Numbered from the stretch's first letter, positions 3,648 to 19,958 are shown. The stretch: DNA of 52,518 nt from Spirochaetia bacterium (GCA_007116075.1 SKJE01000054.1:1-52518); one strand, 5' to 3'. Notes: generated by a model not told the origin, from the letters alone. Numbers and translations: made by a program.

Positions 3648-3681
3648 GAGGCCGTAATCCAAAAAAAAAGATTACGGCCTC
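3648..3681. terminator. hairpin between convergent genes (possible bidirectional terminator)
   Basis: Perfect 12-bp stem GAGGCCGTAATC / GATTACGGCCTC around a CAAAAAAAAA loop, between the stop at 3633 (+) and the stop at 3696 (-). There are no flanking U-tracts, so function is uncertain. Confidence 0.45.
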
Positions 3682-3695
3682 AATCACCACTGTTT

Positions 3696-4643
3696 TTACA
3701 GTTTCGGGTGAAGCTGCTCTTCAAGCCAACTGACTATCTGACGTTCCACGCCTTCCAGTCTCCTCTCGAAGGATTCCTGGGTCCGATATCCGATATGGGG
3801 TGTAACGATAACCTGATCAAATTCAAGAAGCCGGTGATCCTTCTCCATGTTCGTCTTTTCCTTGGTATCAATCCCGGCTCCTGCAATGCATCCTTCCTTC
3901 AGAGCCCTGATGAGCCCCTCCATCTCAATGACAGATCCACGACCCACATTTATGACAAAGGCAGAGGGCTTCATTGTCGAAAGCAGTTCATAGGTGACCA
4001 TCCCTTCAGTCTCTTCTGTCAGGGGGCAATGGATGGAGAGTATGTCAGACTCCCGAAAGAGCTGCTCCAGCTTCACATAGGTCACCCCCGCCTGGTACGC
4101 CTCCCCACTGGGAGTGAGATCATAGGCGATCACCCTGCAGCCGAAGGTATTGACAATCCTTGCTACGGTCACCCCCACGTCTCCAAGACCGATAATACCG
4201 ATTGTCCTGCCGTGAAGTTCCTGACCCAGATAGGGCAGATCATGGAGGCCGGTCCTCATGGCATTATTAGCAATAATCATGGAACGTAGCAGGCTGATCA
4301 TCATGGCTACAGCCAGCTCAGCCACCGCAAAGGCTGAGTACCCTCTAATCTGGGCAACCCTGATACCCCGGTTACTGCAGGTCTCAAGATCAACATGATC
4401 CTGACTTGAAAAGGCTACCACCAGCAGTTTCAGATGTTTTGTCTTCTCTATGACTGCCTGAGTTACCGGGAGGTCAGTGATCACTACCACGTCAGCCTCC
4501 CTTATTCTCAGTGCTGTCTCCTTCTGCGTACCCGGTCGATCAGTATAATAGATGAATTGATGTCCCAGCTGTTCAAACCGCTTTTTGAGCCCCTCCACCA
4601 TATCATAAGAGACAGACAGGGGCTCTGCACATACTATGTTCAT
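3696..4643 (-). CDS. D-isomer-specific 2-hydroxyacid dehydrogenase (glycerate/phosphoglycerate dehydrogenase-like)
   Basis: NAD-binding motif GIIGLGDVGVTVAR and a C-terminal TPHIGYRT block. I chose the start at ATG 4643 (MNIVCAEP...) because GGAGGTG lies 5 nt upstream. The track ORF extends to 4712 without an RBS. Confidence 0.85.
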   Translation of the reverse strand: MNIVCAEPLSVSYDMVEGLKKRFEQLGHQFIYYTDRPGTQKETALRIREADVVVITDLPVTQAVIEKTKHLKLLVVAFSSQDHVDLETCSNRGIRVAQIRGYSAFAVAELAVAMMISLLRSMIIANNAMRTGLHDLPYLGQELHGRTIGIIGLGDVGVTVARIVNTFGCRVIAYDLTPSGEAYQAGVTYVKLEQLFRESDILSIHCPLTEETEGMVTYELLSTMKPSAFVINVGRGSVIEMEGLIRALKEGCIAGAGIDTKEKTNMEKDHRLLEFDQVIVTPHIGYRTQESFERRLEGVERQIVSWLEEQLHPKL

Positions 4644-4749
4644 ATACTCACCTCCAGCATATGGATTCATAAAAAGACCCCTCATTCTACCCCCATCCGG
4701 AGGTGAGAACAAGGGGTATGCATTCCCCCAAAATGATTCAAAGGGTGAA

Positions 4750-6066
4750 TCAGCGGACTGCCTGTACCAGTGCGGCCAGTGCTTTCCGGTAGTCCGCTTC
4801 GGCCACAGATACCAGCAAGCTTAAGGGAGAATTACCGGCGGTTATGGATACTGTTTCAATACCCGATTTCCTCAGTGCAGCAGGCACCTGTTCAAAAAGT
4901 CCCGCCGTGACAGGAATCCCTTCACCAACCACACCAATCAGTGCCAGGGGGCCTGTGATTTCGCAGGCATCTGCTTCCAGCTCCTGCTCAATACGCTTAG
5001 CAGTTACCGAGCTGTCCCAATCGGCCTGTTTTGCATCTACATACAGGGCAATGGAGTCAAATCCACTCAATGTCACATCAGAGCGCAGTCCCATGTCGCT
5101 GAAAAGTTCGCGTACTTGTGCAGGGAATTCAGGATACCTGCTGAGCATGAACTTCTCAATAATGACCCGGTAGTAGGGCATCTTACCGGAAACCCCGACA
5201 ATCGGCTGGGATGAAACATCGCGGTCGGAGGATATCTTCGTCCCGGGGGCTAGAGGATCATTGGTATTCTTGATCTGGATCGGAATACCCGCCTTGCGTA
5301 CCGGAGCAATAGCCTCCTCATGGAATACGTTGGCACCGATCGATGCGAGTTCCCTGATCTCCCGATAGGTGATATTTCTCACCACCTGGGCATCTTCAAC
5401 AATCCTCGGATCCGCCGTGAGCAGTCCCGACACATCGGTCCAGTTCTCATAGAGATCCGCACCAACTGAGCGGGCCGCAATTGCTCCCGAGATATCCGAA
5501 CCTCCCCGGGTAAAGGTCTTCACCTTCCCTGAAGGATCAGATCCGTAAAACCCGCTCAGTACATAGATCGCATGGGGATCATTGAACCGTGCTGCGCAGC
5601 GTTCATAGGATGATTCATCTACCTGGCCGTCATCTGTGAGGCCTATCACTTCACTGGCATCAATAAACTGCGCACCCAATAACTCTGCGATCATCAGTCC
5701 GTTAAGGTACTCTCCCCGGCTGGCTGCAAAATCTGGGGTCTTTTCCCGGGGAATCTGCTCATAGATCCAGTCAAGTTCATCCTTCACCTGGCTGCCCGCC
5801 TGCAGCGATTGTGCTATGTCGAGAAAACGCTTGCGAATAATTCCGAAGGGCTTGTCGATCGACTCCCCCCTTTCAACGAGACGATGGCACTGATAGAGCA
5901 GATCCGTGATCTTCTCGTCCTCCTTGTGCTCCTTTCCGGGGGCTGAAACCACCACAATGCGGCGGCGCTCATCAGAAGCGATAATATCCTTCACCTTCTG
6001 TATCTGTTTCGCGTTCGCCAGGGACGTACCCCCGAACTTGCTGACCCATAATTCCTTAGCTGCCAT
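4750..6066 (-). CDS. lysC: aspartate kinase (monofunctional)
   Basis: 438-aa ORF with the N-terminal kinase motif VSKFGGTSL, GGSDISGAIAA, and C-terminal ACT-like regions. RBS GAAGGAG. Confidence 0.9.
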   Translation of the reverse strand: MAAKELWVSKFGGTSLANAKQIQKVKDIIASDERRRIVVVSAPGKEHKEDEKITDLLYQCHRLVERGESIDKPFGIIRKRFLDIAQSLQAGSQVKDELDWIYEQIPREKTPDFAASRGEYLNGLMIAELLGAQFIDASEVIGLTDDGQVDESSYERCAARFNDPHAIYVLSGFYGSDPSGKVKTFTRGGSDISGAIAARSVGADLYENWTDVSGLLTADPRIVEDAQVVRNITYREIRELASIGANVFHEEAIAPVRKAGIPIQIKNTNDPLAPGTKISSDRDVSSQPIVGVSGKMPYYRVIIEKFMLSRYPEFPAQVRELFSDMGLRSDVTLSGFDSIALYVDAKQADWDSSVTAKRIEQELEADACEITGPLALIGVVGEGIPVTAGLFEQVPAALRKSGIETVSITAGNSPLSLLVSVAEADYRKALAALVQAVR

Positions 6067-6100
6067 GGAACATCTCCTTCATCACACGTGTGAGTTGCTG

Positions 6101-7270
6101 TTATCGTACGAATAATGCTTCCGGAAACTCAATGATCTTCTCACATCCGCTGTCAGTGACCAGGAAGGGTTCACTGCATTCAAAGCCGTAGGTATCAAGC
6201 CAGATACCCGGCATGAAGTGGATGGTCATACCCGGTTTCAGGATTGTCTTGTCTCCCGGCCTGAGGCTGACGGTATGCTCACCCCAGTCAGGGACAAAAC
6301 TGAGACCAAAAGAGTACCCCACCCGGGAAGGTTTATCAATACCGGTACCGACAAGACAGGAACGCCACACAGCCTCAACTTCTTCAGCACTCATCCCCGG
6401 TCCGATTTCGGACAAGGTCTTCTGCAGTCCCTTCACGACTACATCAGCTACGTGCTGAAGATCCTGAGGCGGATCCCCGATAAACACAGTACGTGAGAGC
6501 GGGGCATGGTAGTGATGACGGGCAGAACCGAGTTCAAGAAGCACCACATCTCCCCGCTGGTACGCCCGCTGGGTATCAAAGGTCAGGTGAGCCGAGGAGG
6601 TACGTTCAGCACTGGGCATAATGGGAAAAATTGCCGGGCTGTCTCCGCCGAAGGATGGGGTTCCACGAATCTGCTGGGCTGATACCACAGCAGCCGCTTC
6701 CCGTTCCGCAACTCCCTCACGAATCGTGTCCAAGGCCAGGGACATTGCAGATGAGGTAATTTCGCCTGCTTCACGGATATACTGAATTTCCTGGTCCGTC
6801 TTAATCGTCTTCACCCATCCGACAAGATTATCTGCATCGACTATTGAGAGATAGGTCAGTTCCTTCATTAAGGTGTTATACATCTTGGGAGTGACCCAGT
6901 ATCCGTCCATCTCCATGGCAAGCACATGTCCCTTCCCCCGGATAAGACCTGCGACAAACTCCATAGTATGGATATACCGGGACTGCACATACTCATCTTT
7001 ATACCCGAATATATGGTCATCGGGCAGCCAGGTGGTCAGCCGGGCAGCATTGGAATCCTGCTGGCGACCGAACCAGAGGGGAACCGGATCCGTCAGAGAA
7101 ACGATCAGTCCCTGATGTACATAGAAACTCCAGCCGTCAAACCCTGTGAGATAATTCATATGGCTCGGGTCCATGACCAGCAGCAGCTGTATACCCCGAT
7201 GATCCATTGACTCCTGGACCAGACGGATTCTCCGCTGGTACTCCGCAGCGGGAAATGCAAGTTTGTTCAT
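6101..7270 (-). CDS. M24 (creatinase/prolidase-fold) hydrolase, ectoine-hydrolase (DoeA/EutD)-like, paralog 2
   Basis: Creatinase-type N-domain plus pita-bread C-domain. About 45% identical by eye to the ORF at 9286-10464 (shared NYLTG(F/Y)DGWSFYVHQ, HYHAP, PDWGEHT, RPGDKTIL). ATG at 7270 is preceded by AGGTGG. The track start at 7279 is GTG. Confidence 0.7.
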   Translation of the reverse strand: MNKLAFPAAEYQRRIRLVQESMDHRGIQLLLVMDPSHMNYLTGFDGWSFYVHQGLIVSLTDPVPLWFGRQQDSNAARLTTWLPDDHIFGYKDEYVQSRYIHTMEFVAGLIRGKGHVLAMEMDGYWVTPKMYNTLMKELTYLSIVDADNLVGWVKTIKTDQEIQYIREAGEITSSAMSLALDTIREGVAEREAAAVVSAQQIRGTPSFGGDSPAIFPIMPSAERTSSAHLTFDTQRAYQRGDVVLLELGSARHHYHAPLSRTVFIGDPPQDLQHVADVVVKGLQKTLSEIGPGMSAEEVEAVWRSCLVGTGIDKPSRVGYSFGLSFVPDWGEHTVSLRPGDKTILKPGMTIHFMPGIWLDTYGFECSEPFLVTDSGCEKIIEFPEALFVR

Positions 7271-7285
7271 GCTGTCCACCTGCCT

Positions 7286-8287
7286 CTACCGTTGAACCCG
7301 TATTCCTGCGTTCTTCTTCCGGGCAATATCATAGGCCATCAGTGCAATCATCGTATCCTGGACACCGACTCCGGTCAGGTCGCAGATGGTCACCTGGTCA
7401 TCATCTATCCGTCCCGACTGCCTGCCGTGAATGATCGCACCGAGTTCCTGAACAGGAGTCTCATCGGTAACAATATCTGCAGCTACGGCAGACCTCAGCT
7501 CACCGAGCCGGAAACACTGGGATTTCAGGTCGCAGGCTATGATGTCTGCACCCCGGAACACTTCAGGCAGCAGTTCCTGTTTATCCTCGGAATCACTGCC
7601 CATACTGGTTATATGCATCCCCGGCCGCACCCACTCAGGTTTGAAATAACCCTTCCGCGCAGGAGTGGTGGTCACGATGATACCGCTGTGTGCAGCAACC
7701 TCTTCTCCGATCTCAGCAGAGACCACCTCCACCTTCAGCCCTTTGGTCATGTCATCGACAAAGGCCGCTTTACGTTCATCCGAATCGATGCTGTACATGT
7801 AGATTTTCTTAAAGGGCCGTACCAGGAAGAGCGCTTCCATCTGGTAGCGTGCCTGGACGCCGCAGCCGAAGACACCGACCGTATCGACATTCCTCGGCGC
7901 CAGATACTTGGCGGCAATCGCTCCAGCCGCTGCAGTACGCACCTGGGTAAGATAACCGTTGTCAAGCAGTACCGCCTGAAGGAACCCGGTTTCTGCACTA
8001 ATCACAAGCATCTGTCCGCTCTGGGAAGGCAGGCCTATCTCGTTATTGTGAAAGAACCCCGAAGCGATTTTTATCGCCATACCGGGCAGGCCCTTGATGA
8101 AGGCGCTCTTGATATCGACCTCACCATCCTTATCAGGCACAGGCAGCATCATGATAGGCGGAACCGTCGCCTGACCCGCCTCCAGGGCTGCAAAGCCCTG
8201 CTCCACCTGGGCAATGACCTGTTCATCCAGCTTCACATAGGAACGTAATTCCTTTTCTGACAGAATAATGACTGCATCATCTTTCAT
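7286..8287 (-). CDS. ornithine cyclodeaminase / mu-crystallin family protein (EutC-like)
   Basis: 333-aa ORF with Rossmann block VGVFGCGVQARYQ and typical OCD-family length. RBS AGGAGGAG. The start overlaps the upstream gene by 11 nt. Confidence 0.8.
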   Translation of the reverse strand: MKDDAVIILSEKELRSYVKLDEQVIAQVEQGFAALEAGQATVPPIMMLPVPDKDGEVDIKSAFIKGLPGMAIKIASGFFHNNEIGLPSQSGQMLVISAETGFLQAVLLDNGYLTQVRTAAAGAIAAKYLAPRNVDTVGVFGCGVQARYQMEALFLVRPFKKIYMYSIDSDERKAAFVDDMTKGLKVEVVSAEIGEEVAAHSGIIVTTTPARKGYFKPEWVRPGMHITSMGSDSEDKQELLPEVFRGADIIACDLKSQCFRLGELRSAVAADIVTDETPVQELGAIIHGRQSGRIDDDQVTICDLTGVGVQDTMIALMAYDIARKKNAGIRVQR

Positions 8288-9281
8288 CTGTTTGCTTCTC
8301 CTCCTGCATCATCACCGTAAGATATTGTGATCGGTCCACATTTCGACCGGTAAGGGGAAGGACAACCCGCCTGCCGGAGATCTCAATTTTTCCAGACAGG
8401 ATTGCCCCGATTCCAACGCAGGCCGCCCCTTCAGCGACCAGGCCGTGGTGCCGGAAGCAGAAATACATACCCCGGCTCACATCATCCTCATCCACGATGA
8501 TATGTTCATCAACATACCGTGAGATCAGTTCCATGGTATACCTGTTCTCCCTGCCGATTCCCCCTAAGAGAGAGTCCGCCAGGGTATCCTGCTCTCTGAG
8601 AACAACCGGCTTTCCCGCCTTCAGGCTCTCAATCATAACAGGAGAACGTTCAATGGAGACACCGATCACCCTGATGGAGCTCTTCAGCTCCTTGGCTGCC
8701 ATGGCAATTCCTGCCAGCAGTCCTCCTCCGGACAGGGGTACCAGCAGGGTATCTGCCTCTTTGTACTGCTGCAGGATCTCCAGGGCGATGGTCCCCTGCC
8801 CCGCAATAACTGCGGGATCATCAAAGGGAACCACCGGCGTGAGTTTCCGCTCTTCGGCAATACGGCAGTAGGCCTCTTCAGCCTCATCCTGGGATGATCC
8901 GACCACTACCGGTTCACCGCCGAGGCTCCGGATCGCCTCAATCCGGTACCGGGGGACCCGTTTGGATAAACACACCACAGCCGGAATCCCGCTCTCTGAT
9001 GCAGCCAGGGACACCGCCCGTCCATGGTTCCCCGTGGAAAAGGTGATCACCCCCCGTTTCTGTTCCTCCGGACTAAGGGAGCGAATCCGGTTTGTCGCCC
9101 CCCGGATTTTAAAGGATCCGGTGGGCTGAAGCAGCTCCAGCTTCAGGTGCACTTCGGTTCCTGCCCCGCCTTTCCGGGAAAGCTCCGGGGCATGAATAAG
9201 AGGCGTTTTCCGGGCCACTGCATAGATCCGCCTGGCAGCTTCATATACTGCGGCAATATCGGGGGTCATACGCTTTTCCAT
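8277..9281 (-). CDS. PLP-dependent threonine/serine dehydratase-fold enzyme (EutB-like)
   Basis: Fold-type II PLP motifs: SFKIRGATNR (PLP lysine), STGNHGRAVS, PLSGGGLLAGI. Sits directly upstream of the OCD-family gene, as in eutB-eutC. Confidence 0.8.
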   Translation of the reverse strand: MEKRMTPDIAAVYEAARRIYAVARKTPLIHAPELSRKGGAGTEVHLKLELLQPTGSFKIRGATNRIRSLSPEEQKRGVITFSTGNHGRAVSLAASESGIPAVVCLSKRVPRYRIEAIRSLGGEPVVVGSSQDEAEEAYCRIAEERKLTPVVPFDDPAVIAGQGTIALEILQQYKEADTLLVPLSGGGLLAGIAMAAKELKSSIRVIGVSIERSPVMIESLKAGKPVVLREQDTLADSLLGGIGRENRYTMELISRYVDEHIIVDEDDVSRGMYFCFRHHGLVAEGAACVGIGAILSGKIEISGRRVVLPLTGRNVDRSQYLTVMMQEEKQTDER

Positions 9282-9285
9282 CGTC

Positions 9286-10464
9286 CTACTCTTTCACCAG
9301 CATCATGTCGATGGGATAGTCATACAGCGGTTCATACCCGTCGTCGGTCATATAGATTGATGCATCGATCTCAAACCCCACGTTTTCATACCAGATGCCC
9401 GGTATCAGGTGTATGGCCATGTTGGGAACCAGAATGGTCTTGTCCCCGGGACGGAAACTGATGGTGTGCTCACCCCAGTCCGGCGGATAATTCACACCGA
9501 TGGAGTACCCGAGGCGGGACTCCTTCACAATGGTGGAGTGGCTGATGGCTTCTCTCCATTTCGCCTCCACCTCCTCTGCGGTGACCCCCGGCCTGATCCA
9601 GTCCAGGGTTGCCTGAAGCCCCTCAGTGACGATATCTGCAGTCTCCTGCATAAGCTTAGGAGGGTTTTCACCAAGGAATATGGTTCGTGCAATGGGAGCA
9701 TGGTAGTGCTTGTAGACCCCGCTCAGCTCAAGGAGCACCGCCTCATCCTTTACAAAGGGTGTATCACTCCATGTCAGGTGGGGTGTTTTGGTGGCTTCTC
9801 CCGCCATAATCAGGGGAACAATGGCAGGGTAATCTCCTCCGTACTGTTCAGTTCCCGCATACTGGGCCTGTACAATCCGGGCAGCGGCATCGCATTCCCG
9901 TACTCCCGGCTTGATGCTGTTCTTCGCTGCATCCATAACCTTTACGGCAATCTGACCGGCCCGTTTCATCATCTCGATCTCCTGGTCGGATTTCACCACC
10001 CGGATCCAGTTCACCAGGGCATTTGCATCAACAAAACTGGCGTTGGGCAGGCTCTTCTCAAGCTCAACATAGGAGCGATGGGTGAAATAAAACTGGTCCA
10101 TCTCCACCCCGATGGTCTTACTCCCCCAGCGCCGTTCTTTGATGAGGCCCGCCACGAAGTGCATGGGATGCTTCACCAGTGACTGGACGTAATCATCGGC
10201 ATACTCAAAGATATGCTCATCATCAAGATAGCTGGTGATCCTGGCACCGTTGGCATCCATTCCCCGGCCGATCCAGAGCGGCTGTTCCTCTTCCAGGGAG
10301 ATCACAAGACACTGATGCACGTAGAAACTCCAACCGTCATACCCGGTCAGGTAATTCATATTCGCCGGATGGCTGATAATAAGCAGATCCATTCCCTTTT
10401 CCTGCATGGACTGCTTTGTTTTCTTAACCCGCTCCATATATTCCTGTTTTGTGAAGACTGACAT
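9286..10464 (-). CDS. M24 (creatinase/prolidase-fold) hydrolase, ectoine-hydrolase (DoeA/EutD)-like, paralog 1
   Basis: 392 aa, same architecture as 6101-7270. RBS GAAGGAGG. Placed between the EutA-like and EutB-like genes. Confidence 0.7.
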   Translation of the reverse strand: MSVFTKQEYMERVKKTKQSMQEKGMDLLIISHPANMNYLTGYDGWSFYVHQCLVISLEEEQPLWIGRGMDANGARITSYLDDEHIFEYADDYVQSLVKHPMHFVAGLIKERRWGSKTIGVEMDQFYFTHRSYVELEKSLPNASFVDANALVNWIRVVKSDQEIEMMKRAGQIAVKVMDAAKNSIKPGVRECDAAARIVQAQYAGTEQYGGDYPAIVPLIMAGEATKTPHLTWSDTPFVKDEAVLLELSGVYKHYHAPIARTIFLGENPPKLMQETADIVTEGLQATLDWIRPGVTAEEVEAKWREAISHSTIVKESRLGYSIGVNYPPDWGEHTISFRPGDKTILVPNMAIHLIPGIWYENVGFEIDASIYMTDDGYEPLYDYPIDMMLVKE

Positions 10465-10492
10465 GAAAAACCTCCTTCAATACTCACATATA

Positions 10493-11230: not shown

Positions 11231-11251
11231 AACACTCCCCCTTAGTAGTTC

Positions 11252-12529
11252 CTACACATTTGATATGCTCGGCAGGAAGGTGGCAATCTGGGGAAACAAA
11301 ATGATCAGTATCGTCGAGAACACCAGCATCAGCACAAAGGGCGGTGTTTTCCTGATTACCTCCACATAGGGCCTGCGGAATATCAGCTGGGCAGTAAAAA
11401 TGTCGCACCCGAAGGGCGGCGTCGCAGAACCAATCGCCGACTGGAGCACTACCAGGGTACCCAGCAGGATCGGGTCGATGCCGGTACTCACTACGTAGGG
11501 CTGGAAAATCGGGCTGAGCACGTAGATCGCCACGATCGGGTCTACAAACATACAGGCCACAAAGTAGGCGATGACCACCACAATGATCAGCTGCAGCTGA
11601 GTTGGATCGGTCCCGATAATTATCGGCATGATCTGCTGGGGAATACGAAGGAAACTGATGACCCAGGAGAACACCTGCCCGGCACCGACCAGAATGAATA
11701 CCACACCGGTAACGATACCTGCATCGAGGATCGCCTTTACCAGTTTCTGGAAGGTCAGGGTTCGGTAGATAAACCCCTCCAGGATCAGTGCATAGGCAAC
11801 GCCTGCAGCTGCGGCTTCGGTCGGGCTGAAGATACCGCCGTAGATACCGCCGACAACAAGGATGGGAAAACCAAGGACCAGGAAGCCATCCTTGATGGCC
11901 TTCCAGCGAACAGCCCAGCTGGCCTTCTCGAGAATAGCAATTTTATTTATCTTGGAGTAGAAGAACACATAGGTTGAAAAGAGCAGGAAGATCAGGATAC
12001 CGGGGCCAATTCCTGCTAAGAACAGCTTACCGATTGATGTGCTGGTAACAACTCCATAGACGATAAAACCGATGCTTGGAGGGATCAGCAGTGCCACGTC
12101 ACTGGCATTAATAATTAACCCGAGGGTAAATGGACTTGAATAACCGGCCTTCAAGAGCATCGGCCGCATGGTTCCTCCGATGGCTGACACGGTTGCCTGG
12201 GTTGACCCGGACACCGCACCAAAAAGGGTGCAGCTTGCAGTAGTGGTGATAGCAAGTCCACCCGGGATATGGCCTACAAATACCCGGATCATATCTATGA
12301 GGCGAGTAGCAGCCTTTCCTGAGGTCATCAAGTTTGCCGCAAGAATGAACATCGGCACCGTAACCAGTGACGGAGGAACAAATCCGTTGATTATCTGCTG
12401 GATAACCACCTGCATATTGATCTGCGGCATGGCGATACCAAGAAAGAGCATCAGCGGGGCAAGCAGGGTCACCATGAAGGGAAATCCCAGCAGCAGCATC
12501 AGCACCATAGAAATCCACATAACATTCAT
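11252..12529 (-). CDS. TRAP transporter large permease (DctM type)
   Basis: 425-aa polytopic membrane protein, highly hydrophobic throughout, immediately downstream of a DctQ-size gene. RBS GAAGGAGAG. Confidence 0.9.
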   Translation of the reverse strand: MNVMWISMVLMLLLGFPFMVTLLAPLMLFLGIAMPQINMQVVIQQIINGFVPPSLVTVPMFILAANLMTSGKAATRLIDMIRVFVGHIPGGLAITTTASCTLFGAVSGSTQATVSAIGGTMRPMLLKAGYSSPFTLGLIINASDVALLIPPSIGFIVYGVVTSTSIGKLFLAGIGPGILIFLLFSTYVFFYSKINKIAILEKASWAVRWKAIKDGFLVLGFPILVVGGIYGGIFSPTEAAAAGVAYALILEGFIYRTLTFQKLVKAILDAGIVTGVVFILVGAGQVFSWVISFLRIPQQIMPIIIGTDPTQLQLIIVVVIAYFVACMFVDPIVAIYVLSPIFQPYVVSTGIDPILLGTLVVLQSAIGSATPPFGCDIFTAQLIFRRPYVEVIRKTPPFVLMLVFSTILIILFPQIATFLPSISNV

Positions 12530-12530
12530 A

Positions 12531-13172
12531 CTACTTGCTCTCCTTCATAGTGATTTGCTCCAGCATGCTCTCCGATTCCTTGGTGGCCTCCGCGATCATG
12601 CTTTCCTCATCCTCATATTCACTCTGCTGCTCAGGTGACTGCCAGATATCCTTTTCCCGGATGTTCTTGATAAACGTCCTTACATACTGGAACCCGGCCA
12701 TAAAAAACCCGATCGGGGCTGCTATGATAAAGTACCAGTAGGGCATCCTTAAAGAAGCCGTTGTGGTTCCCCGTACTCGTATATTCATCAGATACTGCAA
12801 TGAAATATAGGCAAGGTAAAACATCACTATAGCGCTCACCGCAGAAATCACAAACATCATTGCCTTTTCCAGCTTCGGGGGGAATGCCTCCAGAAGTGCT
12901 CCCATGCGAATATGACGAGCCTTTCTCGCTGCATAACTTGTCCCGATAAACGTGATGATCATGACAAAAAACTGCGCCAGCTCTTCAGCAAAATAAATAC
13001 TTCTGTAGATATTCCGAGCAGCTACATTTGCAATCAGCAGTACAGCCAGTGCCATCGTACTGATGGTAATTATTGAAACTTCAAAACGATCGACCACCAG
13101 AGAAAGTACTTTCCCGATCTTCCCAATTACGGTGATTTCTTCGCCTTTGGAATCGTTTTTTTGTTCGCTCAT
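12531..13172 (-). CDS. TRAP transporter small permease (DctQ type)
   Basis: About 213 aa with 4 predicted TM segments, sitting between DctP-type and DctM-type genes. Start set at ATG 13172 (MSEQKN...) because the longer track ORF would run through a GC-rich hairpin. The C-terminal acidic tail is unusual. Start is uncertain. Confidence 0.75.
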   Translation of the reverse strand: MSEQKNDSKGEEITVIGKIGKVLSLVVDRFEVSIITISTMALAVLLIANVAARNIYRSIYFAEELAQFFVMIITFIGTSYAARKARHIRMGALLEAFPPKLEKAMMFVISAVSAIVMFYLAYISLQYLMNIRVRGTTTASLRMPYWYFIIAAPIGFFMAGFQYVRTFIKNIREKDIWQSPEQQSEYEDEESMIAEATKESESMLEQITMKESK

Positions 13173-13205
13173 AGGTTTTTTTACCCTTATTTCGTGTATA
13201 GATTG

Positions 13206-13231
13206 TGCCCCGGGGGCGCACCCCCGGGGCA
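13206..13231 (-). other. GC-rich intercistronic stem-loop between the TRAP binding-protein and permease genes
   Basis: Perfect 11-bp stem TGCCCCGGGGG / CCCCCGGGGCA with a 4-nt loop and no U-tail. Located in the 87-nt gap after the SBP stop. Confidence 0.6.
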
Positions 13232-13259
13232 GTATCATCCGTCTAGAAATCTGTATGTA

Positions 13260-14324
13260 CTACATCCCTAATGCAGCCATTGCGTTTTCAATGTCCTGCT
13301 GCAGTGCTTCAAGCATCTGTTCTGAATCGGGTCCGCCGATCTGCGGGAATACAGGATATACGTTATTCACAATCTGCTCCCTAAGATGGGCTTGCTGCTC
13401 ATCGGTAAATTCAGAGAACTGAATTGACGGCCTGTTAGTCTCAATCTGTGCCCGCATGTCAGCATTCACATCCATGATCCATTCAGCTGAATCAACAATT
13501 GCCTGATCCCAGAACTCATGAATGAGGTCTCTGTATTCATCAGACAAACTCTCATAGAATGCCAGGTTTACAACAGGAATACCCAGGAAGGGCTCTGCCC
13601 AGAGCTGCACAAAGTAGTCGGTCACTTCATAGAATCCCATGGTGTAGTTGGCAAACATAGGCTGGCTCTGTGCATCAATCAGACCGGTCTGCAGTCCGCT
13701 GTAGATTTCACCATAAGCCAGTGGAGTGGGGTCTATGCCGTAGGCGCGGTAGTTTCTGCTCAGCATATCAGAGGGCATAATCCTGGTCTTCAGTCCAACT
13801 AGATCTGATGGTCCGCCAACGGGCGTCTTGGAGGTCAGCCACTGCCAGCCTTCGAAGTAGATACCCAGGGGTACCAGGTCATTCCGGCGGAACTTCTCAT
13901 CCATCATGGGAAAGAAATCACCGTTTCGCACAACATGCTCAAGTACCTCAGCAATATTTTCCTTCGGCCATACATAGTGCAGGGCAAGGGCATTTACCTG
14001 AGATACAAAGGAACTCAGCCAGCCGTAGTCGGTAAAGACAAATTCCATAACCCCGTACTGGACCAGCTCAACAATATCTCTGGTATCACCAACAGTTCCA
14101 TAGGGATACACAGTAATATCGAACATCCCATCTGTCTCTTCCCTCATGAAGTCGCCAAACTTCTCTGCCCACACGGTCATGAAGTCAGTGTCCGCTGCAC
14201 CTTCAGCAGAAGCTAACCGCACCTCAAGTTTCTGCGGTCCCTCTGTTTCCTGCGCTCCCTGGGCAAACATACCCATCGGAACCAGCAGCAGTACTGCTGC
14301 TGCAATAACTAATAATTTCTTCAT
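13260..14324 (-). CDS. TRAP transporter substrate-binding protein (DctP type)
   Basis: About 354 aa with an N-terminal signal peptide (MKKLLVIAAAVLLLVPMGMFAQG). Size and position are typical for DctP-family SBPs. Start at ATG 14324 with RBS AAGGGGGA. Confidence 0.85.
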   Translation of the reverse strand: MKKLLVIAAAVLLLVPMGMFAQGAQETEGPQKLEVRLASAEGAADTDFMTVWAEKFGDFMREETDGMFDITVYPYGTVGDTRDIVELVQYGVMEFVFTDYGWLSSFVSQVNALALHYVWPKENIAEVLEHVVRNGDFFPMMDEKFRRNDLVPLGIYFEGWQWLTSKTPVGGPSDLVGLKTRIMPSDMLSRNYRAYGIDPTPLAYGEIYSGLQTGLIDAQSQPMFANYTMGFYEVTDYFVQLWAEPFLGIPVVNLAFYESLSDEYRDLIHEFWDQAIVDSAEWIMDVNADMRAQIETNRPSIQFSEFTDEQQAHLREQIVNNVYPVFPQIGGPDSEQMLEALQQDIENAMAALGM

Positions 14325-14435
14325 ACTAAAATCCCCCTTAATAAATTTTGTATCTTTTTTTTCCATAGGTCAACCAAAGCTTCTTTTTTCTTTGCATCCA
14401 CCTCCTTTTCTCTCCGTTCACCCCATAGGTGAATC

Positions 14436-15617
14436 CTATGAGTATCTCTCAAAGTATCTCATGGCTCCGCGAACCAAAAGCTCCACCCCTGTCGTAAGCG
14501 TAGCCTCATCAATGGTAAACTTCGGGTTGTGGTGGGGATAGGTACTTCCCGCCTCCTCCCGAGCTGTACCGAGGAACACCAGTACCGACGGCACCTGATC
14601 ACAGAATGCTGAAAAGTCCTCACAGGCCATGGATGCATGTTCTGTAATGCAGGACTCTCCAAGCATCTCCTTGGCAACATCAAAGGCCATTGAAGTCATG
14701 GTCGGATGATTCACCACCGCATCATTTTCGTGCTGGATGTCAAAGGTGCATCCGCATCCATGAACAGTACATATGTCCGTGACAAGTTTCCTGAACCGCT
14801 CAGTGGGGTTATGCAGGTCCCCAGGACCGGCGGCATAAAGATACCGTATGGTCCCCTCCAGCACCACCTCATCGGGGATAATATTGTTCTTCGATCCCCC
14901 CTGGACCTTGCCGAACATAATTGCCGTAGCGTTCATCGGTGAGATGAGCCTCGTCTGGATCTGCTGTACCTGCTGTATCACGTTTGCAGCGGCAATAACC
15001 GGATCAACCGCACTCTCAGGATACCCCGTATGCCCTCCCCTGCCGGATATGGTGACAGAGAAGACATCCATGGAGGCGGTTACCGGTCCGGCCTTGATCC
15101 CGACCTTCCCGCTCTCGATGGGCGACCAGATATGCAGTGCCAGGGAAGCATCAACATGGGGATCTTCCAGCACCCCCTCATCTATCATCAGCTGGGCACC
15201 GGCTATCTCCTCATTGGGCTGGAAGACAAACTTGATCCTGCCTTCCAGTTCATCGGCCATCTCAGTAAGTATTTTTGCTGCAATAAGCATCATCGCCATA
15301 TGGGCATCATGGCCGCAGGCATGCATCACGCCGGGATGCATTGAGGCAAAGGCAAAGGAGTTCTCCTCCTGGATCGGCAGGGCATCCATATCGGCACGCA
15401 GCAGAAGGACTGCTCCGTCCTTTCGGCGACCGTCAAGCATGGCTGCGACACCTGTACCGGCGATGCGTTCAGTTTCCAAGCCGAGGGACTGCAGGTATGT
15501 CTCAACCTTTTCAGCTGTCCTGAATTCCCGGAACCCCAGTTCCGGATACGCATGAAAATCTCTTCTCAGTGCAATCAGTTCTTCCCTGTATGTCTCTACG
15601 GCCCTGCGTATTTCCAT
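14436..15617 (-). CDS. M20D-family amidohydrolase (N-acyl-amino acid amidohydrolase / hippurate hydrolase-like)
   Basis: 393 aa with blocks FHAYPELGF, LRADMDALP, HACGHDAHMAM and a C-terminal HHNPKF. Confidence 0.85.
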   Translation of the reverse strand: MEIRRAVETYREELIALRRDFHAYPELGFREFRTAEKVETYLQSLGLETERIAGTGVAAMLDGRRKDGAVLLLRADMDALPIQEENSFAFASMHPGVMHACGHDAHMAMMLIAAKILTEMADELEGRIKFVFQPNEEIAGAQLMIDEGVLEDPHVDASLALHIWSPIESGKVGIKAGPVTASMDVFSVTISGRGGHTGYPESAVDPVIAAANVIQQVQQIQTRLISPMNATAIMFGKVQGGSKNNIIPDEVVLEGTIRYLYAAGPGDLHNPTERFRKLVTDICTVHGCGCTFDIQHENDAVVNHPTMTSMAFDVAKEMLGESCITEHASMACEDFSAFCDQVPSVLVFLGTAREEAGSTYPHHNPKFTIDEATLTTGVELLVRGAMRYFERYS

Positions 15618-15622
15618 GATAC

Positions 15623-16639
15623 CTACACCAAATTCCTCTTTATTAACGTTTCGGCGATCTGCACTGCATTGAGGGCAGCCCCCTTGCGGACGTTATTTGA
15701 AACGCACCAGAGGTTGATGCCCGTCTCAATGGTGAGATCCTCCCGGATCCGGCCGACCATCGTAAGATCTTCATCATTGCTCATAAAAGGCGTAGGATAC
15801 TCTTCTTGAGCTGGATTATCGATCACCTTGATCCCTTCAGCCCGGGAAAGCATATCCCTCACCTCGTCTGCTGAGATTTTTTTCTCAGTCTCGATATTGA
15901 TAGACTCGGAGTGACCGTACCAGACTGGAATCCTGACACAGGTAGCAGATACCTCGATATCCGGGGAGAGCATTTTCTTGGTCTCGTTGACCATTTTATA
16001 CTCCTCCTTGGTATATCCAGCTTCCTCGAACACATCAATATGGGGAATAGCGTTAAATGCGATCTGCTGGTTGTAGACCCGGGGAGCAGATACCTTTCCG
16101 TCCCGAAGCATTTCCCTCGCCTCTTCATCGAGCCCCAAAATGCCTTTCTGACCGGAACCGGACACTGCCTGGTATGTGGATACCACCACCCGCTTAATCT
16201 TAGCCGCATCATGGATCGGCTTGAGCGCCACCAGCATCTGGGTGGTAGAGCAGTTGGGATTGGCAATAATTCCCTTGTGCCAGTCAAGATCCTGGGGATT
16301 TACCTCGGGAACCACCAGCGGACAGTCCGGGTCCATACGCCAATGTGAACTGTTATCCACCACAATGGCTCCCTCCTCTACGGCAACGGGGGCCAGCACC
16401 TTGCTGGCATCCCCGCCTGCGGAGAAGATCGCAATATCGACTCCTGTAAAGGCTCCCTTCTTTGCCTCCTGCACTTCCCACTCTTTTCTCTGGAACGTGA
16501 CTTGCTTGCCGACCTGGGATGCTACATCCAAGGGCACCAAGGTGCCAACGGGAAATGACCGGCGCTCCAGGGTAGATATCATTTCTGTACCGACAACCCC
16601 AAGCGCACCAACCACTGCAACAGTATACGTCTTAGCCAT
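15623..16639 (-). CDS. asd: aspartate-semialdehyde dehydrogenase (phosphorylating)
   Basis: N-terminal VAVVGALGVVG Rossmann motif and active-site block IIANPNCSTTQM. ATG at 16639 is preceded by AGGGGGAAG. The track start at 16645 is GTG. Confidence 0.9.
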   Translation of the reverse strand: MAKTYTVAVVGALGVVGTEMISTLERRSFPVGTLVPLDVASQVGKQVTFQRKEWEVQEAKKGAFTGVDIAIFSAGGDASKVLAPVAVEEGAIVVDNSSHWRMDPDCPLVVPEVNPQDLDWHKGIIANPNCSTTQMLVALKPIHDAAKIKRVVVSTYQAVSGSGQKGILGLDEEAREMLRDGKVSAPRVYNQQIAFNAIPHIDVFEEAGYTKEEYKMVNETKKMLSPDIEVSATCVRIPVWYGHSESINIETEKKISADEVRDMLSRAEGIKVIDNPAQEEYPTPFMSNDEDLTMVGRIREDLTIETGINLWCVSNNVRKGAALNAVQIAETLIKRNLV

Positions 16640-16651
16640 CTTCACTTCCCC

Positions 16652-18034
16652 CTAAGCAAGCTTTCCGTCTTCCAGGTCCTTTATCACTCCTGCAAGAATA
16701 TCAATACCCTTCATCAACAGCTCTTCGGTGATGACTAATGGCGGAAGCATTCTTGCCACGTTATTGTGGTGTCCGCCGACCTCAATCATGACTCCCCGCT
16801 GGTGTGCATATTTCCGGACCTTCTTGGCCAGATCTGCAGAGGGTTTCTTTGTCTTCTTGTCCTCCACCATTTCAAGGCCCATCATGAGTCCGATGCCCCT
16901 GGCTTCACCAAGGATCTTTGAGGATTTCTCAAGTTCCTTCAGCTTTACCATGGCCTTCTTCCCCAGTTCAGCTGCCCGCTCGGGCACCTTGTTGTCAACC
17001 ATCCAGTTGATCGCTGTAGATCCGGCAGCAAATGCCACCATATTGCCCCGGAAGGTTCCGATGGTTTTTCCCGGCGGCCATGTGTTCAGTTCCTCCCGAT
17101 ATGCAATAGCAGAGATGGGAAATCCGATTCCTCCGAGGGCCTTGCTCATGGTGACAATATCGGGAACGATGCCGGCATGTTCAAAGGCAAACATCTTACC
17201 GGTCCTGCCGAGGCCTGCCTGGATTTCATCACAGATCATCAGCACACCGTGCTTCTCGGTAATTTCACGAACTCTCTGGAGAAACCGCGGTGAAGGAATA
17301 ATTGTTCCGCCCTCACCCTGGACCGACTCCAGAATGACTGCCGCAGGTTTTGAGAATCCTGAGTGGGAGTCCTCAAGGATTCGTTCAAGATAGTCCGCTG
17401 CCTGGTCTCCTACCTGCTCATCGGGACACCCGAAGGGGTTTCGGTAGGTATAGGGAAAGGGGATAAACTGGATGCCCGGCACCAGGGGTCCAAGTCCGTC
17501 CCGGTGACTGCTGTCGGTGGTCAGGGCAAGAGCCGCCCCGGTCATACCGTGATATGCTCCTTCAAAAGCTATAATGCCGAAGCGCTGGGTATTGAACTTC
17601 GCCAGCTTCAGGGCCTGTTCTACAGCGTCTGAACCGGTAGGACCGCCGAAAAAAATCCGGCTGAGCTCCTTGGGAAGCACGCTCCTGAGGGTTTTCACCA
17701 TCCGCTGCCTGGTCTCTGTCGGTATATCCAGCGAGTGGGTCACCTTGTCTATCTGCTCATGGGATGCCTTCAGCACATCAGGATGTCCATGACCGACAGC
17801 CATGACACCGGCTCCCGCAAAGAAATCTATATAGACATTCCCATCCACATCCTCCAGGGTTGCTCCCTTGCCCCGGGCGATAGCCATAGGCATGCCGCGG
17901 GAATAGGAAACCACTGAACTTTCGGTTTCGGCCTGGTACTTCAGGATTTCCTGAGACTTCGGTCCCGGCGGTACAGTCTTGATAATCGGTGCACCTGGGA
18001 TTGACAGTTCTTCAAACATCTTCTCTCTGTCCAT
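16652..18034 (-). CDS. class-III PLP aminotransferase (diaminobutyrate/4-aminobutyrate--2-oxoglutarate transaminase-like, DoeD/EctB-like)
   Basis: 460 aa with CDEIQAGLGRTGKMFAFEHAGIVPDIVTMSKALGG (PLP lysine) and GGPTGSDAVE blocks. RBS TAAGGAGAG. Confidence 0.85.
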   Translation of the reverse strand: MDREKMFEELSIPGAPIIKTVPPGPKSQEILKYQAETESSVVSYSRGMPMAIARGKGATLEDVDGNVYIDFFAGAGVMAVGHGHPDVLKASHEQIDKVTHSLDIPTETRQRMVKTLRSVLPKELSRIFFGGPTGSDAVEQALKLAKFNTQRFGIIAFEGAYHGMTGAALALTTDSSHRDGLGPLVPGIQFIPFPYTYRNPFGCPDEQVGDQAADYLERILEDSHSGFSKPAAVILESVQGEGGTIIPSPRFLQRVREITEKHGVLMICDEIQAGLGRTGKMFAFEHAGIVPDIVTMSKALGGIGFPISAIAYREELNTWPPGKTIGTFRGNMVAFAAGSTAINWMVDNKVPERAAELGKKAMVKLKELEKSSKILGEARGIGLMMGLEMVEDKKTKKPSADLAKKVRKYAHQRGVMIEVGGHHNNVARMLPPLVITEELLMKGIDILAGVIKDLEDGKLA

Positions 18035-18064
18035 TTCACACTCTCCTTATATATCTCATTATCC

Positions 18065-18883
18065 TCATCGGCTGGGCCTGAATGAGGATCGTGTGTTCTC
18101 CGCTACCCGCTCGGTAATCCTCCGGGCAGCCTGCATCAGCGGCTGGACCAGATCCATAATCCTGGCTTCTGTTAGCCGCATGGAAGGTCCTGATATCGAT
18201 ATGGTAGCAATTACCGTACCCTCAACATCAATAATGGGTGCGGCTACACTGTTCAGGTCATCGCTGAACTCAAGTATCTCCGTAGAATAACCCTTGCCCT
18301 GGGCCGACCGTACAGCCCTGATGAACTCTTCACGCTCCAGTATCGTGCGGGAGGTTCGCTCCCGCATGGGGATCTCACTGAGATACCCCCGAAGCTGTTC
18401 ATCACTGTAGTGAGAGAGCAGCAGCTTCCCGGAAGCGCAGGAATTCACAGGATAGGAATAGGTAACATCAGGGTTGAGTATCACATGGTGGGCGCTTTTC
18501 ACTTCGTCAATTGCCAGTACCATGTCCTCGGAGAGCACATTGAGATAGATATTTTCATGGGCTATCTGCTCCAGCTCATTCATCGCAGGTTTTGCCACAT
18601 CCCGAAGGCTTTTATTGAGGGGCACTGTACTGGCAAGCTGGAAAAGCTTGAAGGTAAGCCCGTATCCCTGCTCCCATTTCTCCACATATCCCGCAGACAC
18701 CAATGTCGCCAGCAGCCGGTGCACATTTGCCCTGGTCAGCTCGAGCCCCTTGCTGATTGATGACGGGGAGACCGGCTGATGAGCTGCGATGTATTCAAGC
18801 ATATGGAACGCCTTCAGCACAGTCGTCGCCAGCACATAGCTTGATGTTTCATTATTTGTACGCTCGTTTAATTGGTGCAACAT
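18065..18883 (-). CDS. IclR-family transcriptional regulator
   Basis: 272 aa with an N-terminal wHTH (VLKAFHMLEYIAAHQPVSPSSISKGLELTRANVHRLLATLVSAGYV) and a C-terminal IclR effector domain. First gene of the co-directional train. Confidence 0.85.
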   Translation of the reverse strand: MLHQLNERTNNETSSYVLATTVLKAFHMLEYIAAHQPVSPSSISKGLELTRANVHRLLATLVSAGYVEKWEQGYGLTFKLFQLASTVPLNKSLRDVAKPAMNELEQIAHENIYLNVLSEDMVLAIDEVKSAHHVILNPDVTYSYPVNSCASGKLLLSHYSDEQLRGYLSEIPMRERTSRTILEREEFIRAVRSAQGKGYSTEILEFSDDLNSVAAPIIDVEGTVIATISISGPSMRLTEARIMDLVQPLMQAARRITERVAENTRSSFRPSR

Positions 18884-18964
18884 ATGTTTATTCTTTTACG
18901 AAAATGAGTAAATGTCAAGGATTTTTTGTAACTTTTTATGACTTAATATATCTCTACGCGGATT

Positions 18965-19002
18965 ATGTAATGTATATTACATGTTCATGCAAGTAATTAC
19001 TT
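18965..19002. promoter_or_regulatory. two GTAAT/ATTAC dyads upstream of the IclR gene (candidate operators)
   Basis: ATGTAAT-GTAT-ATTACAT (18965-18982) and the perfect 12-bp palindrome AAGTAATTACTT (18991-19002), 80-120 nt upstream of the iclR ATG. Confidence 0.35.
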
Positions 19003-19017
19003 GTACCAGGGCGTAAA

Positions 19018-19939: not shown

Positions 19940-19958
19940 ATATATCCTCCTAAAAAAA

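Follow-up and report, generated by a model that had tools for sequence, protein, structure and literature searches.

A gene cluster of anaerobic Spirochaetota predicted to degrade ectoine and hydroxyectoine, with a possible ATP-conserving end in aspartate

Few osmolytes of bacteria are as abundant as the ectoines. Their degradation is described for the doe clusters of Halomonas elongata (doeABX-doeCD) and Methylotuvimicrobium alcaliphilum (doeBDAC), in which ectoine is converted to aspartate by way of N-alpha-acetyl-diaminobutyrate, diaminobutyrate and aspartate semialdehyde. Here we analyze a train of 14 minus-strand genes in a 52,518-nucleotide stretch of DNA from a Spirochaetia bacterium (GCA_007116075.1, SKJE01000054.1:1-52518), the whole of which is called the window below. 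The same intermediates can be assigned to its enzymes. Unlike this spirochaete, the hosts of the doe clusters are aerobes, and their last step is that of DoeC; unlike the train, their clusters have no transporter, EutB, EutC, second DoeA, asd or lysC. A sequence-only reading of the window had interpreted the train as a (hydroxy)ectoine catabolic operon, and that interpretation is partly supported. Judged from its proteins and their neighbors, the train is probably an ectoine and hydroxyectoine catabolic operon that ends in aspartate via aspartate-semialdehyde dehydrogenase (Asd) and aspartate kinase (LysC).

In the survey of Czech et al. 2018, predicted ectoine consumers were confined to Proteobacteria, one Desulfovibrio included (PMC5924519). 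Boas Lichty et al. 2026 reported putative clusters in Thermodesulfobacteriota, Bacillota (Clostridia included), Actinomycetota and Archaea (PMC13188858). In those of Thermodesulfobacteriota 9-13 genes share one direction, two of them usually eutD homologues, eutE and ssd are missing, the extra genes are unassigned, and synteny with the proteobacterial clusters is lacking; those of Bacilli have the amidohydrolase gene abgB in the place of the deacetylase gene, together with genes for homoserine dehydrogenase and aldehyde dehydrogenase (PMC13188858). Neither Spirochaetota nor asd nor aspartate kinase is mentioned there (PMC13188858). In the literature on anaerobic ectoine degradation only this 2026 survey touches such clusters (PMC13188858). 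The general idea of non-canonical ectoine clusters in anaerobes is already published; the 13-gene architecture of spirochaetes, the strict coupling of transaminase and asd, the racemase-fold partner of a distinct family, the altered binding pocket and the reading in which ATP is gained are unpublished. The two M24 paralogues, which had been listed as a departure from the canonical set, are present in the train, but clusters with two eutD and without eutE or ssd are part of the 2026 survey (PMC13188858).

Fourteen consecutive minus-strand open reading frames (ORFs) fill positions 3696-18883 of the window, all of them where the sequence-only reading had placed them. Their families were assigned by profile searches against NCBIfam and Pfam, with scores read against the NCBI cut-offs, and match the parts list given there (Table 1). 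With the gene calls on record, the junction gaps from iclR to the closing D-2-hydroxyacid dehydrogenase (HADH) gene are 45, 12, 5, 69, 87, 1, 21, 28, 4, -11, 15, 34 and 64 nucleotides (nt). The three larger gaps named in the earlier reading are reproduced with plausible start codons: 87 nt between DctP and DctQ with the DctQ start at 13172, 106 nt between lysC and HADH with the NCBI start for HADH (L083), and 111 nt between the M20 gene and DctP with the DctP start at the ATG at 14324, which is preceded by an AAGGGGG ribosome-binding site and followed by a signal peptide. Co-directionality is weak evidence for a unit, because 0-46 kb of the window has a single GC-skew sign and belongs to one replichore with mostly minus-strand genes, and the same-strand run extends upstream of the train through opuA. 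A pattern scan detected no intergenic terminator-like site within the train; the same scan missed the terminator behind opuAC that is described below. Because the gaps are short, no internal intergenic terminator-like site was detected and the gene order is kept in many genomes, the 14-gene train is one unit and not a product of chance; a chance or non-operon arrangement is ruled out by the spacing together with the conserved synteny.

Scanning of a genome collection yielded 80 related loci, which were annotated with the window proteins; the counts given below use the 35 loci with enough flanking DNA. Homologues of DoeA1, the first of the two M24 hydrolases, number in the thousands, and the closest of them (70-79% identity) all come from anaerobes. 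The order iclR-transaminase-asd-M20-dctPQM-racemase-doeA1-eutB-eutC-doeA2(-lysC) recurs in many Spirochaetota. All 13 genes from iclR to lysC occur in this order in the cultured anaerobe Sediminispirochaeta smaragdinae DSM 11293 (CP002116, 585936-607108, complete genome), in Pleomorphochaeta sp. and in metagenome-assembled genomes (MAGs) of Spirochaetota, and several Sphaerochaetaceae loci keep the order with lysC missing. Desulfuromusa kysingii DSM 7343 has a rearranged, ectoine-only version, iclR-transaminase-asd-racemase-M20-dctPQM-doeA1, followed by four genes and then lysC, without eutB, eutC and doeA2. The four genes (locus L016, 11757-19386) encode an NAD-glutamate dehydrogenase of 1020 aa, a proline-racemase-family protein, a flavoprotein resembling fumarate reductase and aspartate oxidase, and a fused 2Fe-2S/4Fe-4S/CCG protein. 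They may serve glutamate recycling and the fate of aspartate or fumarate; the glutamate dehydrogenase would recycle the glutamate formed by the transaminase, which fits a catabolic flux. A smaller core of M20, dctPQM, the racemase-fold gene and doeA1 is present in Clostridia-type Bacillota (Alkaliphilus peptidifermentans included), in Atribacteria-type MAGs and in Desulfobacterales MAGs, and in rearranged form in Halanaerobiales.

The two M24 proteins consist of Creatinase_N and Peptidase_M24 domains (Pfam), and for both the best family by far is the DoeA/EutD model TIGR02993, with 464.7 bits for DoeA1 and 375.7 bits for DoeA2, under the equivalog cut-off of 613 in each case; the next models are DoeA_2 with 214 bits and PepQ with 95 bits. 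The sole strong solved relative of both is DoeA of H. elongata (PDB 6twk), which is matched by DoeA1 at E=4e-109 (368 bits, residues 4-387, 42.7% identity) and by DoeA2 at E=5e-98 (332 bits, residues 7-392, 39.9% identity). Prolidases come next, at 102 bits or less and E-values of 1e-25 to 1e-28. The comparison of the pair with characterized proteins that had been called for in the sequence-only reading finds DoeA to be by far the closest relative. DoeA1 and DoeA2 share 47% identity and form two separate clades in a neighbor-joining tree of 115 sequences, with H. elongata DoeA outside both. Their divergence is within the range of working DoeA enzymes, since the genetically supported DoeA of M. 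alcaliphilum is likewise only 42% identical to Halomonas DoeA (PMC7192451). DoeA1 is a predicted ectoine hydrolase that would open the ring to N-alpha-acetyl-diaminobutyrate. DoeA2 is accompanied by EutB in 19/19 loci, and because it is only ever found with EutB it may be specific for hydroxyectoine.

The substrate-binding protein of DctPQM, a tripartite ATP-independent periplasmic (TRAP) transporter, has UehA (3fxb; 2e-39, 139 bits) and TeaA (2vpn; 1e-35, 127 bits) as its best solved relatives, which hold ranks 1 and 2 among 82 TRAP receptors and support the proposal of an ectoine-type importer. The ligand contacts of TeaA are reportedly F66, R144, W167, N184, W188 and F209 (Kuhlmann 2008), and the 2vpn chain has residues of these types at the numbered positions. 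At these six positions, so numbered, the window protein and its orthologues have identical residues for R144 and F209, conservative replacements for F66 (W), W167 (Y) and N184 (N or Q) and a radical one for W188, which is alanine. Among the 46 orthologues only the position of N184 varies, with N in 28 of them and Q in the other 18; the remaining five positions do not change. The alignment is consistent with a re-arranged aromatic box in which the arginine and the amide are kept.

Deacetylation would be the task of an M20D enzyme. No match to the EutE/DoeB deacetylase (TIGR02994-type) was found among the 14 train proteins, and the M20D enzyme fills this slot, as had been claimed; the swap is not without precedent, since NCBIfam holds an M20-type DoeB2 model (NF038260). 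The window enzyme scores 345 bits with TIGR01891 (cut-off 154) and matches the DoeB2 model over its full length with 266.3 bits, under the cut-off of 550. That model may derive from methanotroph DoeB. In PDB the enzyme is related to amidohydrolases of N-acyl amino acids, YxeP and ILR1-like proteins among them, and an M20 gene is present in 34 of the 35 well-covered loci.

For the EutB-like protein, EutB is still the best family, although both scores are below their cut-offs (NF005680, 389.9 bits, cut-off 413; TIGR02991, 351 bits, cut-off 413.35); its PDB relatives are TdcB, a catabolic threonine dehydratase, and serine racemases. The EutC-like protein passes NF006141 (420.3 bits, cut-off 408) and stays below the EutC model TIGR02992 (354.6 bits, cut-off 471.65), with alanine dehydrogenase 1omo, pyrroline-2-carboxylate reductase and the iminosuccinate reductase 6rqa (BhcD) as PDB relatives. 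The two match the models of BhcB and BhcD with 205 and 181 bits. The likeness to EutD, EutB and EutC that the sequence-only reading had noticed thus holds for the best-matching families, for DoeA 6twk and for NF006141, but not at the cut-offs of TIGR02993, EutB and TIGR02992. Ring opening and deacetylation of hydroxyectoine would give 3-hydroxy-2,4-diaminobutyrate, a beta-hydroxy-alpha-amino acid, and therefore the EutB-like and EutC-like proteins can be read, by analogy, as a dehydratase and an imine reductase that would together yield diaminobutyrate. This fits the rapid turnover of hydroxy-diaminobutyrate into diaminobutyrate in Ruegeria pomeroyi (PMC8739950).

The protein called EutA-like in the sequence-only reading shares the fold class of EutA only and is not its orthologue. 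Its sole NCBIfam match, even at E<=10, is NF005679/PRK07475, and no match to the EutA model, which is TIGR02990 to judge by the run of accession numbers, was found in NCBIfam at E<=10. A search of PDB sequences gave no match. In Foldseek the AlphaFold2 model (pLDDT, a per-residue confidence score, 87) is similar to arylmalonate decarboxylase and to racemases of hydantoin, allantoin and Asp/Glu, with a TM score of ~0.6, and two cysteines, C85 and C204, are invariant in the family, as in two-base racemases. In 30 of the 35 loci the gene lies beside doeA1 or not far from it. It keeps this place even where eutB and eutC are absent, which ties its role to the core and not to the hydroxy branch.

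The class-III aminotransferase passes the diaminobutyrate transaminase model TIGR00709 'dat' (425.8 bits, cut-off 401.6), which upholds its proposed function, and is below the cut-offs of the narrower EctB (TIGR02407) and PRK06938 models. It matches EctB 6rl5 in PDB at E=4e-80 and is 72-85% identical across related clusters. Asd passes both NF011456 (474 bits, cut-off 223) and TIGR01296 (445.5 bits, cut-off 324.2) and has the catalytic motifs NPNCST and GHS. Wherever the transaminase gene occurs, asd sits between it and the deacetylase gene. Among the 35 well-covered loci, 18 have transaminase and asd together and 16 lack both; the transaminase never occurs alone (18/18 with asd), and asd without transaminase was seen in one locus (1/35), at the locus edge. 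The cluster Asd of Desulfuromusa shares 65% identity with its counterpart in the spirochaete cluster and only 56% with a second Asd encoded ~1 kb upstream in the same genome; it is therefore an additional copy that moves together with the cluster.

LysC, an ordinary enzyme of two domains (Pfam AA_kinase and ACT_9; PDB 3tvi, E=8e-100), is above the cut-off of TIGR00657 (236 bits, cut-off 208.7) and below that of PRK09034 (413 bits, cut-off 434). The conserved cluster ends with lysC in the window, S. smaragdinae, Pleomorphochaeta, Desulfuromusa and several MAGs, and lysC diverges along with the cluster, at a higher rate than the other genes. That lysC was recruited separately in different lineages is rejected, as the identities of LysC run parallel to those of DoeA2, the transaminase and Asd, at lower values.

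No gene of the Aldedh family was found in the window, where all large ORFs are assigned elsewhere. A strict six-frame scan of the window for the Aldedh motif was negative, with a motif that also missed the two Aldedh-like ORFs of the Bacilli loci; a broader motif, run on the 80 loci, found these ORFs in the two Bacilli loci (L070 and L079) and none in the other 78. The deviations from the canonical parts list that had been pointed out earlier, namely an IclR regulator, an M20 enzyme, two M24 paralogues, asd and lysC, and no aldehyde dehydrogenase, are all real.

Taken together, sequence, predicted structure and gene context suggest the following scheme, in which every step is derived from homology and context. 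The train would be a substrate-inducible chromosomal operon of an anaerobic spirochaete that converts ectoine and 5-hydroxyectoine to L-aspartate, acetate and ammonia-bearing glutamate. The TeaA/UehA-like TRAP transporter would import the solutes. DoeA1 would open the ectoine ring to N-alpha-acetyl-L-2,4-diaminobutyrate, DoeA2 would do the same for hydroxyectoine, and the M20D amidohydrolase would take off acetate in the stead of EutE/DoeB. In the hydroxy branch, the EutB-like pyridoxal phosphate (PLP)-dependent dehydratase would strip water from 3-hydroxy-diaminobutyrate and the EutC-like OCD-family reductase would reduce the 2-imino acid to diaminobutyrate, analogous to BhcB and BhcD of the beta-hydroxyaspartate cycle. 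The class-III transaminase would convert diaminobutyrate and 2-oxoglutarate to aspartate-4-semialdehyde and glutamate. Instead of the irreversible NAD-dependent DoeC/Ssd, Asd would then turn semialdehyde, Pi and NAD(P)+ into 4-aspartyl-phosphate and NAD(P)H, and aspartate kinase would turn aspartyl-phosphate and ADP into aspartate and one ATP, a substrate-level phosphorylation like that of glyceraldehyde-3-phosphate dehydrogenase (GAPDH) and phosphoglycerate kinase. Expression would be under IclR control from a promoter directly before iclR.

The Asd reaction is freely reversible, and the equilibrium of aspartate kinase lies far on the side of aspartate and ATP, which makes the reverse route a simple one. 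Black and Wright in 1955 reportedly assayed Asd in the phosphate-dependent oxidative direction, and this assay is said to be routine. To our knowledge, Asd and aspartate kinase are known in vivo only in the biosynthetic direction, and the literature holds no description of a catabolic, ATP-yielding pair of the two. That cluster-borne Asd, with or without aspartate kinase, works in reverse as the ATP-conserving end of ectoine catabolism in anaerobic Spirochaetota and Desulfuromusa is accordingly put forward as a tentative proposal, a possibility that we do not yet call probable. For fermenters and sulfur reducers it would be sensible to have an ATP-yielding pair in the place of an oxidation that wastes energy.

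Several findings speak against parts of this scheme, and some of them favor other explanations. The lysC gene is absent from many otherwise complete clusters, several of those of Sphaerochaetaceae included; LysC retains ACT regulatory domains, like biosynthetic kinases; and the co-occurrence counts come from loci that are phylogenetically non-independent. The first two points, together with the fact that Asd and LysC pass or nearly pass the models of biosynthetic enzymes, favor a reading in which the route is the same and Asd and LysC are ordinary biosynthetic genes, possibly the sole copies, that balance the aspartate-family pools under a flood of semialdehyde, while the semialdehyde itself is drained by an enzyme such as homoserine dehydrogenase or dihydrodipicolinate synthase. 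We regard this as rather unlikely. With the transaminase already delivering the semialdehyde, Asd would not be needed for biosynthesis, yet asd is the gene most strictly coupled to the transaminase (18/18); the cluster Asd of Desulfuromusa is an additional paralogue beside another Asd; no other semialdehyde-consuming enzyme and no Aldedh motif was found in the anaerobe loci; and the Rfam scan returned neither a riboswitch nor a known biosynthetic leader.

Other findings concern the substrate. The scores of DoeA1 and DoeA2, EutB, EutC (TIGR02992) and DoeB2 are all under the NCBI equivalog cut-offs, so that membership or orthology in the strict sense is not established; the replacement of W188 by alanine is invariant in the pocket, and the preferred ligand could differ from ectoine; and the racemase-fold protein, encoded in nearly every cluster, has no place in the scheme. 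These points, and the two hydrolase paralogues, which imply two substrates, would suit a related compound that yields diaminobutyrate, such as free alpha- or gamma-N-acetyl-diaminobutyrate, a cyclic amidine such as homoectoine, or hydroxyectoine only. We consider such a substrate improbable, as DoeA and the ectoine binders are by far the closest characterized relatives, two DoeA enzymes with experimental support are just as divergent from each other, and related MAG loci come from a soda-lake series, that is, from settings that are saline and generally ectoine-rich. Still further from the evidence is a biosynthetic cluster in which LysC, Asd and the transaminase make diaminobutyrate from aspartate, as ectoine or siderophore synthesis does, for some product derived from it. 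Its appeal lies in ask-asd-ectB-type associations beside ectoine biosynthetic genes (PMC5924519; PMC13342039), but all 14 ORFs are assigned, none of them to EctA acetyltransferase, EctC synthase or a non-ribosomal peptide synthetase, the importer, two ring hydrolases and deacylase point to catabolism, as does the glutamate dehydrogenase of the Desulfuromusa version, and we hold it to be very improbable. Catabolism of ectoine and hydroxyectoine to aspartate is the reading that we prefer.

Some of the related clusters differ in ways that touch the proposed route. Clostridia-type and Halanaerobiales clusters (L027, 485-3608; L049, 668-3779; L058, 261-3417; L065, 6794-9973) lack transaminase, asd and lysC. 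In their place is a triad of a PanB-like protein (ketopantoate hydroxymethyltransferase family), a ~312-aa protein without Pfam match and a Glu/Leu/Phe/Val-type dehydrogenase; the family assignments come from L027, and in L049, L058 and L065 the triad is read from ORF sizes and order. The triad may be a third, undescribed way of diaminobutyrate disposal. Halanaerobiales loci L064-L068 and L072 have both DoeA1 and DoeA2 and two M20 proteins, ~50-52% and ~33-34% identical to that of the window, in the order doeA1-...-eutB-...-M20'-doeA2-dctQM-M20, which suggests separate pairs of ring opening and deacetylation for two substrates.

The regulator at the head of the train is of the IclR type. Its matches to the NCBIfam models PcaR, KdgR and BhcR are all below the cut-offs, and it is conserved at the cluster head with 47-61% identity in related clusters. 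A MocR/EnuR-type regulator was not found adjoining the cluster, and the regulator is likewise IclR-type in the related loci. Two or three tandem IclR paralogues stand before the catabolic genes in L014, L020, L022, L023, L025, L029, L033 and L084. The two palindromes upstream of iclR in the window, each of which occurs once in it, are candidate IclR operators; related loci carry other, lineage-specific palindromes at the same place, 60-120 nt upstream of iclR. In the window, and likewise in ~14 of 27 related loci, a promoter-like TTGACA-17-xAxAAT box ends 5-7 nt ahead of the start codon of iclR. As a whole, the scan for promoters and terminators gave no excess over chance, and the iclR-proximal box gains its support from conservation only. 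Since the box ends 5-7 nt before the start codon, the sequence suggests an autoregulated, leaderless or near-leaderless transcript that would start at iclR.

Upstream of iclR, the opuA genes form a separate transcription unit. The terminator after opuAC, with a 7-bp G+C-rich stem, a 7-nt loop and T6, splits the OpuA operon from the iclR-led train, and opuA was not found beside the cluster in the related loci examined, occurring there only in the window's own lineage. OpuA is therefore a neighbor outside the unit, and the earlier notion of one compatible-solute module with OpuA in it is not supported. At the other end, HADH closes the train in the window, as had been described, but is not conserved with the cluster: it has this position only in the window's own contigs and lineage and is absent there in all other related loci. 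All its NCBIfam matches are below cut-off, and it is a lineage-specific add-on, possibly for redox balance. Behind it, a hairpin between the convergent HADH gene and a gene resembling AMP-dependent acyl-CoA ligases probably marks the end of the transcription unit and is likely bidirectional.

The host belongs outside the Proteobacteria, as the sequence-only reading had supposed: the top named GroEL matches, with up to 89% identity, are all from Spirochaetia (Sphaerochaetaceae, Salinispira and Sediminispirochaeta). The flanks of the train consist of housekeeping genes (SecDF, GroEL, PGI, PFK, LigA, DnaE and RecG), and a mobile element is rejected on these flanks together with uniform composition. 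An identical DoeA1 is also present in the NCBI MAG GCA_003556725.1 and in an 82.9-kb metagenome contig at ENA, and related MAG loci include a soda-lake sediment series (isolate names T1Sed10 and CSSed). Soda lakes are saline settings in which ectoines are abundant osmolytes. The host is an uncultured spirochaete, and its habitat is most probably anoxic saline or alkaline sediment. Elsewhere in the window, positions 41802-45077 (plus strand) encode a three-subunit molybdoenzyme of the xanthine dehydrogenase family (MoCoBD, 2Fe-2S and FAD-binding); the ORF of its large subunit (999 aa) overlaps ligA on the opposite strand, and the true start is probably near 41.8 kb. A second gene of the Asp/Glu-racemase family (Pfam, 69 bits; probably glutamate racemase) lies at 22809-23624 (plus strand) just beyond opuA, and a second M20 peptidase gene at 51276-52517 (minus strand) at the right window end, both outside the cluster.

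Table 1. Coordinates of the train and of the elements around it. For train genes the ORF extent is given, and "gene" denotes the extent from the chosen start (recorded gene calls of the contig, except for DctP).
Feature	Coordinates	Strand	Basis
opuAA-opuAB-opuAC, glycine-betaine-type ATP-binding cassette (ABC) importer, separate transcription unit	19070..22057	-	Pfam ABC_tran+CBS, BPD_transp_1, OpuAC
Intrinsic terminator after opuAC, ATCCCCGG-TAATGAA-CCGGGGAT then T6	19015..19042	-	direct sequence reading
Two perfect palindromes, candidate IclR operators: CAAGTAATTACTTG and ATGTAAT-N4-ATTACAT	18965..19003	.	each once in window
Promoter-like box TTGACA-17-AAGAAT, 6 nt before iclR ATG	18890..18918	-	10/12 matches
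IclR-family transcriptional regulator	18065..18883	-	Pfam HTH_IclR + IclR_C
Class-III aminotransferase, predicted L-2,4-diaminobutyrate:2-oxoglutarate transaminase (DoeD/EctB-like)	ORF 16652-18034, gene 16652..18019	-	TIGR00709 above cut-off
asd, phosphorylating aspartate-semialdehyde dehydrogenase	ORF 15623-16645, gene 15623..16639	-	NF011456, TIGR01296
M20D N-acyl-L-amino-acid amidohydrolase, predicted N-alpha-acetyl-diaminobutyrate deacetylase	14436..15617	-	TIGR01891
TRAP substrate-binding protein DctP (TeaA/UehA-like), signal peptide	ORF 13260-14366, gene 13260..14324	-	PDB UehA/TeaA matches
TRAP small membrane subunit DctQ	ORF 12531-13238, gene 12531..13172	-	Pfam DctQ
TRAP large membrane subunit DctM	11252..12529	-	TIGR00786 332 bits, cut-off 268
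Two-cysteine racemase/epimerase-fold protein, family PRK07475	10493..11230	-	NF005679 281 bits, cut-off 231
M24 hydrolase DoeA1, predicted ectoine hydrolase	9286..10464	-	PDB 6twk, TIGR02993 best family
PLP-dependent dehydratase, EutB-like, threonine-dehydratase fold	8277..9281	-	NF005680 best family
OCD/mu-crystallin-family NAD(P)H imine reductase or cyclodeaminase, EutC-like	7286..8287	-	NF006141 above cut-off
M24 hydrolase DoeA2, paralogue of DoeA1	ORF 6101-7279, gene 6101..7270	-	PDB DoeA match
lysC, aspartate kinase with ACT domains	4750..6066	-	TIGR00657 above cut-off
D-isomer-specific 2-hydroxyacid dehydrogenase (HADH)	ORF 3696-4712, gene 3696..4685	-	Pfam 2-Hacid_dh + 2-Hacid_dh_C
12-bp perfect inverted repeat/hairpin, T9 loop, between convergent HADH and AMP-dependent acyl-CoA-ligase-like genes	3649..3681	.	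direct sequence reading

The ~80 loci make up a coherent anaerobe-type family with its own binding pocket, deacetylase, regulator and partner protein, and this family spans Spirochaetota, Desulfuromusa, Clostridia-type Bacillota, Halanaerobiales, and Atribacteria-type and Desulfobacterales MAGs. If Asd and LysC do run in reverse, the result would be a substrate-level phosphorylation that has not been described before, made up of two textbook enzymes of biosynthesis, and a new source of ATP in anaerobic fermentation of the amino-acid type. Compatible solutes would then be an energy-yielding fermentation substrate, which would explain the recycling of ectoine carbon and nitrogen in anoxic saline and soda-lake sediments. 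Carriers are available in culture: S. smaragdinae DSM 11293 has the same 13 genes, and D. kysingii DSM 7343 and A. peptidifermentans DSM 18978 have related sets.

Among described systems, the EnuR/Ssd-type ectoine operon with a UehA-like TRAP importer resembles the train in being one long operon of importer and catabolic enzymes, with an M24 hydrolase, a threonine-dehydratase-fold EutB, an OCD-fold EutC, a class-III diaminobutyrate transaminase and aspartate as end product. It differs in its regulators (EnuR of the MocR type with AsnC, as opposed to IclR), in its deacetylase (EutE/DoeB, as opposed to M20D) and in its last step (Ssd/DoeC, as opposed to asd and lysC), whereas the window has two M24 paralogues, a racemase-fold gene of a family other than that of EutA and an anaerobic spirochaete as host. 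The EutB-like and EutC-like pair is comparable to BhcB and BhcD, a PLP-dependent dehydratase that acts on a beta-hydroxy-alpha-amino acid and an OCD-family imine reductase that follows it, and BhcR is also of the IclR family; in the window, however, the substrate would be 3-hydroxy-2,4-diaminobutyrate and not hydroxyaspartate, and the scores are far under the Bhc equivalog cut-offs. For Asd and LysC the parallel is GAPDH and phosphoglycerate kinase, where a cysteine-dependent dehydrogenase makes an acyl-phosphate and a kinase passes the phosphate to ADP; the families are unrelated, and the catabolic use of Asd and LysC is hypothetical. Also close are the clusters of the type surveyed by Boas Lichty et al., to which the Desulfobacterales loci L074-L080 appear to belong, and to which the version of spirochaetes and Desulfuromusa adds transaminase-asd(-lysC).

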